The notes beneath the pieces are model-generated. The model did not search any database, was not told where the DNA came from, and saw only the letters and a list, made by a program, of their open reading frames with translations. This document shows positions 7,853 to 60,692 of a DNA stretch of 64,000 bases, in pieces. Within the stretch, counting starts at the first letter, position 1. The number at the start of each line of letters is the position of its first letter. Source of the DNA: an uncultured Alphaproteobacteria bacterium. Its GTDB lineage: Bacteria > Pseudomonadota > Alphaproteobacteria > Rhizobiales > Aestuariivirgaceae. A program made the position numbers and the translations under genes. Location of the stretch: contig CAVWGR010000001.1 of NCBI GenBank assembly GCA_963754625.1, forward strand, positions 129,513 through 193,512. The letters run 5' to 3'.

Positions 7853-7929
7853 TGGTCGGAGTGAGAGGATTCGAACCTCCGACCCCCTGCTCCCGAAGCA
7901 GGTGCGCTACCAGACTGCGCTACACTCCG
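7853..7929 (-). tRNA. tRNA-Pro(CGG)
   Basis: Cloverleaf CGGAGTG...CCTGC-TT-CGG-GA-GCAGG...GGTTCGAATCC...CACTCCG-ACCA. Confidence 0.97.
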
Positions 7930-11614: not shown

Positions 11615-11689
11615 TGGGGCGTCGCCAAGCGGTAAGGCAGCGGATTTTGATTCCGCCATGCGGAGGTTCGATCCCTCCCGCCCCAGCCA
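11615..11689 (+). tRNA. tRNA-Gln(TTG)
   Basis: TGGGGCG...GCGGA-TT-TTG-AT-TCCGC...GGTTCGATCC...CGCCCCA-GCCA. Confidence 0.97.
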
Positions 11690-25554: not shown

Positions 25555-25640
25555 TTGCGTTGCGACGCGACTTCCGGTTATGGCGGTCGCGGGCTAGCCC
25601 TCCCCACCGGGGGCCAGTTCATCTGTAAGGATGGAGCAAC
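25555..25640 (+). promoter_or_regulatory. serC promoter and probable serC leader RNA
   Basis: TTGCGT-N17-TTATGG, then hairpins CCCC-acc-GGGG and CATC-tgtaag-GATG abutting the GGAG RBS. A serC leader motif is known in alphaproteobacteria; the covariance-model match was not checked. Confidence 0.5.
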
Positions 25641-42178: not shown

Positions 42179-42204
42179 ATGAACAGTCCATTCAGGGCGG
42201 GTTC
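42179..42204 (+). promoter_or_regulatory. ATGAAC-N5-RTTCAG-N3-GGGTTC motif, copy 1
   Basis: ATGAACAGTCCATTCAGGGCGGGTTC, about 55 nt before the ORF at 42259. Confidence 0.6.
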
Positions 42205-55074: not shown

Positions 55075-55123
55075 TGCGTCGGCTCTATACGCAATAAAAT
55101 TTCGCGGTGGAAGCAGTGCCTGA

Positions 55124-55305
55124 AAAGAAAAACCCCGGCTTTGGGCCGGGGCAAGGTTCAGGCGGGGTCGGGATCACGTTGCAGGGGATCGGAGCGCCTG
55201 GGGCCTTTTGGGGAGAGTAGTTTGGAAGACATAGAGAGGAGCCGGGGCCAGCCTTGGGTCTGGCGAGGGGGCGGGTTATCAGGCCTTTGACCTTGCCCCG
55301 GCTCC
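55124..55305 (-). ncRNA. Candidate 3'UTR structured RNA, copy A (three hairpins, the last a terminator)
   Basis: 11-bp stem 55238-48/55295-305, 6-bp stem 55159-64/55195-200, and terminator CCCCGGC/GCCGGGG with a U-tract. Conserved with copy B. Confidence 0.6.
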
Positions 55306-55348
55306 AACATCCGCGCTGCCGTCCAGCGCACGGACGTATTCGAATGGG

Positions 55349-55537
55349 TTATTCTTCTGAGCAATCCTCGTTGGCACAAGGCTCAAGCTCGATTTCACCG
55401 AACTGCGGGAAGGCCTGGTTCTTGGCGATCACCGTGGTGTGGGCCGGATTGGAAATCTGCTCAGCCGGCGCGATAGAGGCAACGGCGGTGGCGGCAGAAC
55501 CGATAACGGCGAGAACGAAGAGTGTGTAGCGGATCAT
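55349..55537 (-). CDS. 62-aa secreted peptide with C-terminal C-x4-C, copy A
   Basis: AGGGAGG RBS. MIRYTLFVLAVIGSAATAVA...FGEIELEPCANEDCSEE. Confidence 0.85.
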   Translation of the reverse strand: MIRYTLFVLAVIGSAATAVASIAPAEQISNPAHTTVIAKNQAFPQFGEIELEPCANEDCSEE

Positions 55538-55587
55538 TGTGAACCTCCCTGGTTCGGTTGTTGGGAGAACCATAGGCCGCGCCAGAC

Positions 55588-55613
55588 GAACCCACGCTGA
55601 ATGAGCCGTTCAT
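55588..55613 (-). promoter_or_regulatory. ATGAAC-N5-RTTCAG-N3-GGGTTC motif, copy 2
   Basis: Minus strand ATGAACGGCTCATTCAGCGTGGGTTC. Confidence 0.65.
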
Positions 55614-55690
55614 CTGGCGTTTAGATTCAGGAAATCTTGGGTGGCCTGCAAATTTCTCAGCGGTGAAATGGATTGCGCCATCCCCACAAC

Positions 55691-55840
55691 AGAAAACCCC
55701 GGCTTTTCGGGCCGGGGCACCTGACAGGGCGGGATCACTTTGCAGGGGATCGGGGAGCCTGTCGGGAGAAGTTGGAACCGGGGCCTGCCTTGGGACTGAC
55801 GAGGGGGCGGGTTAATCGGCCTTTGGGAAGGCCCCGGTTC
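55691..55840 (-). ncRNA. Candidate 3'UTR structured RNA, copy B
   Basis: 12-bp stem 55775-86/55829-40, a GACAGG/CCTGTC stem, and a terminator hairpin with a U-tract. Confidence 0.6.
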
Positions 55841-55884
55841 TTTTCGCCATTCAACTCTTGCGAGCCGGACAGCGAAACTCAAAT

Positions 55885-56073
55885 TCATTCCTCAGAGCAA
55901 TCCTCCACGGCACATTCCTCGATAATGAGGTCGCCGAACTGCGGGAAAGCCTGATTTTTAGCCACCACCGTAATATTGGCGGGGCTGGACGTTTGGGTTG
56001 TTGGAGCGATCGAGGCGATGGCCGTTGCGGCGGAACCAATCACTGCGAGAGCAAAGAGTGTGTACCTAGTCAT
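55885..56073 (-). CDS. 62-aa secreted peptide with C-terminal C-x4-C, copy B
   Basis: AGGAGG RBS. MTRYTLFALAVIGSAATAIA...FGDLIIEECAVEDCSEE; 46/62 identical to copy A. Confidence 0.85.
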   Translation of the reverse strand: MTRYTLFALAVIGSAATAIASIAPTTQTSSPANITVVAKNQAFPQFGDLIIEECAVEDCSEE

Positions 56074-56135
56074 CTTGAACCTCCTTTCGGTCCTGTAAGC
56101 CTTGAACTTGGCAATGGTTCTATTGGATCCATCAC

Positions 56136-56161
56136 GAACCCGTGCTGAACGCGCTGTTCAT
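56136..56161 (-). promoter_or_regulatory. ATGAAC-N5-RTTCAG-N3-GGGTTC motif, copy 3
   Basis: Minus strand ATGAACAGCGCGTTCAGCACGGGTTC. Confidence 0.65.
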
Positions 56162-60618: not shown

Positions 60619-60692
60619 TGGCTGGGGGACTAGGATTCGAACCTAGACAATCAGAGTCAGAGTCTGAGGGCCTACCGTTAGCCGATCCCCCA
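60619..60692 (-). tRNA. tRNA-Gln(CTG)
   Basis: TGGGGGA...TCAGA-CT-CTG-AC-TCTGA...GGTTCGAATCC...TCCCCCA-GCCA. Confidence 0.96.

Follow-up and report, generated by a model that had tools for sequence, protein, structure and literature searches.

Introduction

Base pairing of small RNAs (sRNAs) with the mRNAs of porins and other outer-membrane proteins is a means of repression in the Gammaproteobacteria, with MicF, MicC, MicA, RybB, MicL and VrrA/MicV acting in this way, in many cases as the branch of an envelope stress regulon that represses. Aestuariivirgaceae is a freshwater lineage within the Rhizobiales, uncultured for the most part, for which, to our knowledge, no riboregulator has been described. 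A full-text literature search returned no work on RNAs in the genus Aestuariivirga, and literature searches turned up no sRNA targeting a general porin in the Alphaproteobacteria.

In the Enterobacteriaceae, the sRNA CpxQ is located in the 3′ UTR of cpxP (PMC4817254). In Caulobacter crescentus, the stem-loops of ChvR pair both with the 5′ end (−70 to −59) and with the Shine-Dalgarno (SD) region of the mRNA for an outer-membrane receptor (PMC6237742). The cuckoo/alpha-r14 RNAs of the Alphaproteobacteria (CcsR1-4, NfeR1) carry C-rich hairpin-loop motifs and occur in tandem copies, those of Rhodobacter being co-transcribed with an upstream small ORF (PMC4615179, PMC8034643). The two elements described here, from the genome of an uncultured member of Aestuariivirgaceae (G000), share features with each of these systems and are copies of a previously undescribed sRNA family.

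Organization of the locus

The window, which is the whole stretch of 64,000 nucleotides that was analysed, carries on its minus strand at 55122-56161 two paralogous units in tandem, adjoined by genes for an Lrp/AsnC regulator, a BenE transporter and an amidase. Each unit comprises, in this order, an upstream motif, a 62-aa ORF, the hairpins H0 and H1, a pyrimidine linker (…UUCUCCC…), the hairpin H2 and an intrinsic terminator, with all coordinates of the units given below referring to the minus strand.

In the unit that contains copy B, a promoter/operator-like motif (ATGAAC-N6-GTTCAG-N3-GGGTTC; 56136..56161) located by whole-genome pattern search lies before small ORF B (55885..56073), the translation of which gives 62 aa with a signal peptide and the C-terminal sequence ECAVEDCSEE. 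Folding places H0 (55842..55877) immediately 3′ of the stop codon, followed by H1 (55775..55840), a long imperfect hairpin recognised by folding, by a covariance-model match at 55691-55841 and by pair counts, with UUAACCCGCCCCCUCGUCAG (55796-55813) as its apical loop. The single-stranded pyrimidine linker CAACUUCUCCC (55764..55774) was delimited by alignment and leads into H2 (55723..55763), again defined by folding, in which the proposed seed is CCCCGAUCCCCUGCAA (55740-55755). The unit ends in an intrinsic terminator found by terminator scan (55688..55718), its stem (55718..55696) being followed by a U-tract.

The unit that contains copy A is built in the same way, with the motif found by whole-genome pattern search at 55588..55613 and small ORF A (55349..55537), supported by translation and by homologues, encoding 62 aa with a signal peptide and the C-terminal sequence PCANEDCSEE. 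Folding defines H0 (55307..55337), while H1 (55238..55305) was identified by folding, the covariance model and pair counts and has the loop AACCCGCCCCCUCGCCAG (55260-55277). The linker (55201..55237), delimited by alignment and folding, includes CUCUCCCC and is longer than that of copy B. H2 (55159..55200; folding) holds the seed CCGAUCCCCUGCAA (55179-55192), and the intrinsic terminator (55122..55152; terminator scan) consists of a stem at 55152..55132 and then a U-tract. The terminator scan found these U-tracts on the minus strand only and the folds agree with that strand. Both small ORF products combine a signal peptide with an acidic C-x4-C tail, and searches of Pfam and NCBIfam assigned them to no family.

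A cmscan search with all 4227 Rfam 15 models gave nothing over the elements at the gathering score and only chance or terminator matches at E ≤ 10, and Rfam assigned no family to 17 homologous or target loci. Elsewhere in the window, Rfam identified a serC leader (44 bits; 25587-25639, plus strand) and three tRNA genes (7856-7929, minus strand; 11615-11686, plus strand; 60622-60692, minus strand). In their C-rich loops, tandem copies and upstream small ORF the elements are like the cuckoo RNAs; however, the loop motif CCUCCUCCC that defines the latter is missing here, where the loops are AACCCGCCCCCUCGCCAG and CCGAUCCCCUGCAA, and the upstream ORF encodes a secreted C-x4-C peptide rather than DUF1127. 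Since there is neither a covariance-model match nor a CCUCCUCCC motif, the elements do not belong to the cuckoo RNAs.

A conserved RNA with covarying helices

The original prediction, made from the two copies, was that the outer stem carries a paired substitution and that the H2 stem changes in sequence while keeping its topology, and both observations are borne out. The outer stem of H1 reads GGAGCCGGGGC...GCCCCGGCUCC in copy A (55305..55238) and AGAACCGGGGC...GCCCCGGUUC in copy B (55840..55775), with an A-U to G-C double change between them, and across a 30-sequence alignment the substituted pair is AU in 24 sequences, GU in 4 and GC in 2. In H2, the stem of copy A (55200..55159) is formed by CAGGCG/CGCCUG and that of copy B (55763..55723) by GACAGG/CCUGUC. 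The near-invariance proposed for the enclosed motifs holds for AACCCGCCCCCUCG and for CCGAUCCCCUGCAA-GUGAUCC, which are common to both copies and have cores that are conserved throughout the family, but not for CCCAAGGC, which is part of the variable middle stem of H1. Compared with dinucleotide shuffles, copies A and B have fold z-scores of −3.3 and −3.5, respectively, with 0 of 200 shuffles folding as well.

Covariation in a larger alignment, on which the prediction had been made to depend, is significant among 88 homologues. In this alignment, which was fitted to the covariance model and is therefore biased towards the modelled structure, the 26 modelled pairs are 94.8% paired as against 78.7% in column shuffles, and shifting the 3′ partner by 1-3 columns lowers pairing to 31-54%. 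Double-sided changes are present in 22 of the 26 pairs, and the observed values were reached by 0 of 500 shuffles. In an alignment made with MAFFT only, double changes are already found in 11 of 24 pairs. The covariation is located in H1, the loop-closing stem, the inner H2 stem and the terminator, which covaries at all 8 of its pairs across the family.

The outer stem of H2 falls into 17 classes that have no 5-mer in common and is not alignable by sequence. When its arms were exchanged between stem classes, a test of which the fixed-window version was noisy, cognate arms outpaired swapped arms with 0 of 20000 permutations as good. Of 68 homologues, 60 have a hairpin at the position of H0 (mean z −3.05), its sequence not being conserved. 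It follows from the covariation, the pairing of the stem classes and the H0 hairpins that the helices are under selection. In the loops (with a CCCCCUC core in H1 and UCCCCUGCAA in H2) and the linker, it is the sequence that is under selection. The element is a conserved RNA with four helices (H0, H1, H2 and the terminator), in which the loops of H1 and H2 and the linker hold invariant C-rich sequence.

In several genomes, H1 is duplicated in tandem to give the order H1-H1′-H2-terminator, as at loci L076/L018 (genome G125), L075 (G231), L084 (G168) and L100-L102, the last group having an additional C-rich hairpin (CCUCCCCAUCCCCUCAC) 3′ of a divergent H2. In some clades, it is the H0 loop that holds an H1-like C-rich motif (AACGCCCCCUC, AACCCGCCCCCGCC), as seen in the region between the stop codon and H1 at L099, L103, L116, L118, L121, L122 and L129, and in those clades three or four C-rich loops are therefore displayed per RNA.

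Distribution and gene context

G+C-rich inverted repeats in tandem arrangement are also what might be seen in dispersed repetitive DNA of the REP or MITE-like kind that has no function as RNA, and a finding of many genomic copies had been named as a result that would speak for such a repeat. When the element was compared by BLAST with the complete 3.27-Mb genome, two copies only were detected, on which ground a dispersed repeat is refuted. Covariance model R1, built from 30 homologues, matches 158 of the 241 genomes of the GTDB family (Aestuariivirga and relatives), in 9 of 20 genera, with 1-3 copies in each. With the gene context always the same and the helices preserved by compensatory changes, the probability left to a dispersed repeat is negligible. 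In 400 genomes of the order, five weak matches were found outside the family and were set aside, their scores being driven by the terminator, and the RNA is confined to a single bacterial family.

A pattern scan of public genomes yielded 48 stretches, mostly from Aestuariivirga and Hyphomicrobiales MAGs. About 18 of these were discarded after inspection as chance matches, several lying inside a coding gene of Beta- and Gammaproteobacteria that reads IRPLAYC...IIPCNLCGSQ (probably ttcA). A 3.2-kb contig labelled as a Rhodoferax sp. MAG (L040; JBDHRZ010000401.1) carries a typical Aestuariivirga-type unit of small ORF plus sRNA, nearly identical to that of G102, and this contig is probably mis-binned.

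At least 62 of 85 RNA matches begin 24-76 nt past the stop codon of a small ORF homologous to these C-x4-C genes, which is an undercount as the ORF picker was crude. The RNA lies between the stop codon of the small ORF and a common intrinsic terminator, the position of a 3′-UTR-derived sRNA, and judging by this placement it is probably derived from the 3′ UTR. It resembles CpxQ in this respect, both being located in the 3′ UTR of the mRNA for a small periplasmic protein with which a terminator is shared, such that a single transcript would give rise to a periplasmic effector and to a riboregulator aimed at envelope proteins. In a comparison drawn from sequence alone, the two RNAs are not homologous in sequence or in structure, the protein encoded upstream, with its 62 aa and acidic C-x4-C tail, is not related to that of cpxP, and the predicted target is a porin leader and none of the CpxQ targets.

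The same position raises the question of a purely cis-acting 3′ UTR, in which the hairpins would serve only to stabilise the micropeptide mRNA or to end it, without a target in trans. In keeping with this, the element always shares the terminator of the gene and lies 24-76 nt past the stop codon, and the conservation of H0 is confined to its structure, as expected of a protective hairpin. Invariant loops of 14-18 nt are however needless in stabiliser hairpins, the H2 loop is matched by an unlinked leader with which it co-varies (see below) and in genus g16 the RNA is found without any upstream ORF, making a function confined to cis very unlikely.

In some genomes the ORF is followed by just H2 and the terminator, while in genus g16 the RNA is a stand-alone gene behind the same promoter motif. 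From the H1 duplications, the units reduced to H2 and the stand-alone gene of g16 it follows that the RNA, and H2 in particular, is the selected unit, and that the RNA belongs to a regulon defined by the promoter motif. The g16 arrangement points to an evolutionary transition between free-standing and 3′-UTR-embedded forms of the sRNA. The g16 gene, which consists of linker, H2 and terminator (L140 of G031, 601-724; L139 of G049, 201-313) and has no micropeptide ORF, starts approximately 60 nt past the promoter motif.

In eight genomes of the genus that are nearly complete, no copy bearing a UCCCCUGCAA loop was recognised with one search pattern that was too strict and a looser one that was partly inspected. 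The leader motif beside the porin gene (see below) is retained in 5 of the 6 of these genomes that were searched with the looser pattern, from which it follows that this motif has a role of its own. In G092, which has no model match, the looser pattern gave one candidate, in which GAGUCCCCUGCAAGG is followed directly by a strong terminator (L214; C31:8965-8974, minus strand) and has 11-nt complementarity to the porin leader of the same genome (UUGCAGGGGAC), such that the locus may be a minimal version of the sRNA.

Complementarity of H2 to a porin leader

It had been suggested that the C-rich loops pair with SD sequences or other G-rich mRNA sites. For H2 this is supported by a specific G-rich site in a porin leader, to which the complementarity is long, conserved and co-varying and which is not the SD itself; no convincing partner was found for H1. 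The H2 of copy B has a perfect 16-nt complement at C5:1418510-1418525 of G000, extending to 20 nt with G-U pairs. This 16-mer occurs a single time in the genome outside the sRNA genes, the chance expectation for a 16-nt match being approximately 0.002 when equal base frequencies are assumed. The site, UUGCAGGGGAUCGGGGGG, is at approximately −51 to −36 relative to the ATG of a Porin_2-type gene, in the putative leader, to which the H2 of copy A has a perfect complement of 14 nt. The predicted duplex with the leader has an energy of −35.5 kcal/mol for copy A and −43.8 kcal/mol for copy B, with 0 of 500 shuffled leaders as good. A second perfect 14-mer (CCGAUCCCCUGCAA; C5:927453-927466) was rejected as a target, being a copy of the seed that has the same sense as an acyl-CoA-synthetase-like ORF, in which it encodes ADPLQ, and is probably due to chance.

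The target ORF begins with a signal peptide and its full-length homologues are 400-550 aa long, ending in …VTWWNF. Relatives of the homologue in G113 at 40-70% identity have precomputed assignments to PF02530 or PF13609, with one named 'porin [Aestuariivirga sp.]' by NCBI. Pfam and NCBIfam searches with the porin fragments gave no family, and the G113 homologue itself has the signal peptide and the C-terminal ...VTWWNF, with hmmscan scoring no porin family. In G000, the predicted ORF (C5:1418561-1419941) is split over four reading frames with at least three frameshifts relative to G113, which could reflect strain heterogeneity, a consensus or assembly error, or gene decay. Unlike the frameshifted porin ORF, the genes nearby in the window are intact.

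For the H2 seed CCCCUGCAA, a leader element UUGCAGGGGA(U/C)(C/G)GGGGGG recurs in this position in 29 of 30 homologous genes of the genus and in five other genera. Over the 31 genomes of 6 genera in which both loci are known, the longest perfect complementary run has a mean of 15.4 nt, compared with a mean of 7.5 nt for shuffled leaders even when G-U pairs are allowed. Within the genus the sRNA and leader co-vary at GAUC/GAUC, GGUC/GACC and CCAUCC/GGAUGG. In this genome and its relatives, the sRNA loop …CGAUCCCC is matched by the leader GGGGAUCG…, in 11 genomes the loop …CCAUCCCC is matched by GGGGAUGG…, and in several genomes and genus g16 …GGUCCCC is matched by GGGGACC…, with CCCCU-CGAA in the loop and UUCG-N-AGGGG in the leader in genus g13. 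These compensatory changes amount to three states within the genus and one in g13 and represent few independent events (at least 2-3), with G-U wobbles between sRNA and leader being tolerated, for example in G102. The H2 loop is complementary to, and co-varies with, a conserved G-rich site in the putative porin leader.

As double-stranded DNA, the porin site and the sRNA site are one and the same sequence, and a motif of 14-19 bp common to both could also be the operator of a single transcription factor, with the RNA complementarity being a by-product. All sites would then be expected to change in parallel as the specificity of the factor drifts. The motif in the sRNA is however neither a palindrome nor a direct repeat, it occupies the apical part of a hairpin with covarying stems directly before a terminator, and the differences between sites include G-U-compatible transitions. 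In addition, lineages differ in the sub-window of the constant 19-nt leader element that is covered (UUGCAGGGGAUC, AGGGGAUCGGGGGG or the whole element), which fits selection on a duplex and does not fit a shared DNA operator, leaving an operator a highly improbable explanation.

An hfq gene is present (PF17209, 110.9 bits, C5:1360729) and the terminators have U-tails, the combination that would be predicted for an Hfq-dependent sRNA. Base-pairing control of the mRNA for an abundant outer-membrane protein would be shared with the gammaproteobacterial porin sRNAs, which are unrelated in sequence and lineage, and repression here is assumed by analogy with them. The pairing sites of most of those sRNAs fall on or close to the ribosome-binding site or early in the coding region, whereas the site in the porin leader is approximately 25 nt upstream of the SD and direct occlusion of the ribosome is therefore unlikely. 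ChvR, likewise alphaproteobacterial, combines a far-upstream site with a site near the SD, to which the H2 site (−51 to −36) and a possible contact between linker and SD may be compared. It differs in being a ChvI-dependent stand-alone gene with a TonB-dependent receptor as target; no sequence similarity between the two RNAs was detected, and the second site is weakly supported in the Aestuariivirgaceae RNA.

The linker, the folding of the leader and the H1 loop

In copy B, the linker is complementary over 7 nt to GGGAGAA of the porin SD region, and linker complementarity to this region (UUGGGAGAA) reaches 7-8 nt in this and some other genomes. Across genomes it is 4-8 nt, with a mean of 6.0 compared with 4.4 in shuffles, and being inconsistent and modestly above shuffles, linker-SD pairing was rejected as a consistent feature. 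The folding of the porin leader is unremarkable (z +0.8). In the RNAalifold consensus of the leader, CCUUCC is paired with the G-run and UUGCAGGGGAU is placed in a loop, with no covariation in the predicted leader helices, a hairpin further upstream in the leader among them. A hairpin or switch that sequesters the SD is unsupported by this folding and by the consensus.

The loop of H1 is the longest invariant stretch of the RNA (18 nt). A search of this genome with the reverse complement of the H1 loop found no significant partner, and a perfect 12-mer at C3:125174 was rejected as it falls inside coding sequence and is no more than chance would produce. The original prediction had allowed for the binding of a protein, and the C-rich loops, mainly that of H1, could bind a protein instead of or besides mRNAs or make the RNA a sponge. 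The invariance of H1 over 18 nt exceeds that of a typical seed, its tandem duplication in some genomes and the recurrence of H1-like C-rich loops in the H0 of some clades would be accommodated, as would the lack of a significant RNA partner. On the other hand, no candidate protein came to light, the target search for H1 was crude and base pairing by itself explains H2 well, and protein binding or a sponge is on balance unlikely as the function of the RNA; the H1 loop by itself may bind a protein.

The upstream motif

The motif upstream of the units has the general form ATGAAC-N6-(A/G)TTCAG-N3-GGGTTC and is followed 12 nt further on by a CTATGG- or CAATAG-like −10 sequence, with the same motif preceding homologous units in other genomes. 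The promoter/operator-like motif recurs in the window at 42179-42204 (plus strand), before another small signal-peptide gene, and there is one further occurrence in the genome (C5:77293-77318 of G000, plus strand). The motif reads equally well as TGAAC-N16-GTTC (ECF sigma-like), as GTTC-N7-GTTC (LexA box-like) or as TTC repeats spaced by 11 bp. The alphaproteobacterial LexA box resembles GTTC-N7-GTTC, while 11-bp-spaced TTC repeats are of the kind bound by response regulators.

A proposed envelope circuit

The resemblances to known sRNAs, taken together with the failed tests for cuckoo membership, identify a separate new sRNA family that appears, by analogy, to work like CpxQ, MicA or ChvR without being homologous to them. 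We consider it likely that the RNA is a trans-acting base-pairing sRNA with the porin leader as its target. The element of approximately 150-180 nt, encoded in the 3′ UTR of a secreted-micropeptide gene and ending at the common terminator, would be co-transcribed with the mRNA of the micropeptide from a conserved promoter that depends on a regulator. The RNA may be freed by processing or may act within the full mRNA, with the H2 loop predicted to pair with the porin leader approximately 50 nt upstream of the AUG. As judged by analogy, this pairing would most likely reduce porin synthesis, possibly by destabilising or remodelling the leader, and in some lineages the linker might assist by pairing with the SD region. 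In such a circuit, the permeability of the outer membrane would be tied to an envelope-related regulon.

A further elaboration, which we regard as tentative and rather doubtful, is that one transcript provides two coordinated envelope functions in the form of the C-x4-C micropeptide and a multi-seed riboregulator. The porin leader would then be an sRNA-triggered switch, in which pairing of H2 with the G-run would release the leader-internal C-rich anti-SD CCUUCC without any direct block of the ribosome. The H1 loop, together with the H1-like H0 loops, would serve as a second seed directed at further envelope mRNAs or would titrate a protein.

If the proposed pairing is correct, it would give the Aestuariivirgaceae a well-supported sRNA-target pair arrived at purely by sequence analysis. 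The covariance model, the defined seed and the defined target site make it directly testable in the cultivable type species. The combination of a gene for a periplasmic protein with a 3′-UTR sRNA directed against outer-membrane proteins suggests that this arrangement arose independently of the enterobacterial cpxP-CpxQ.
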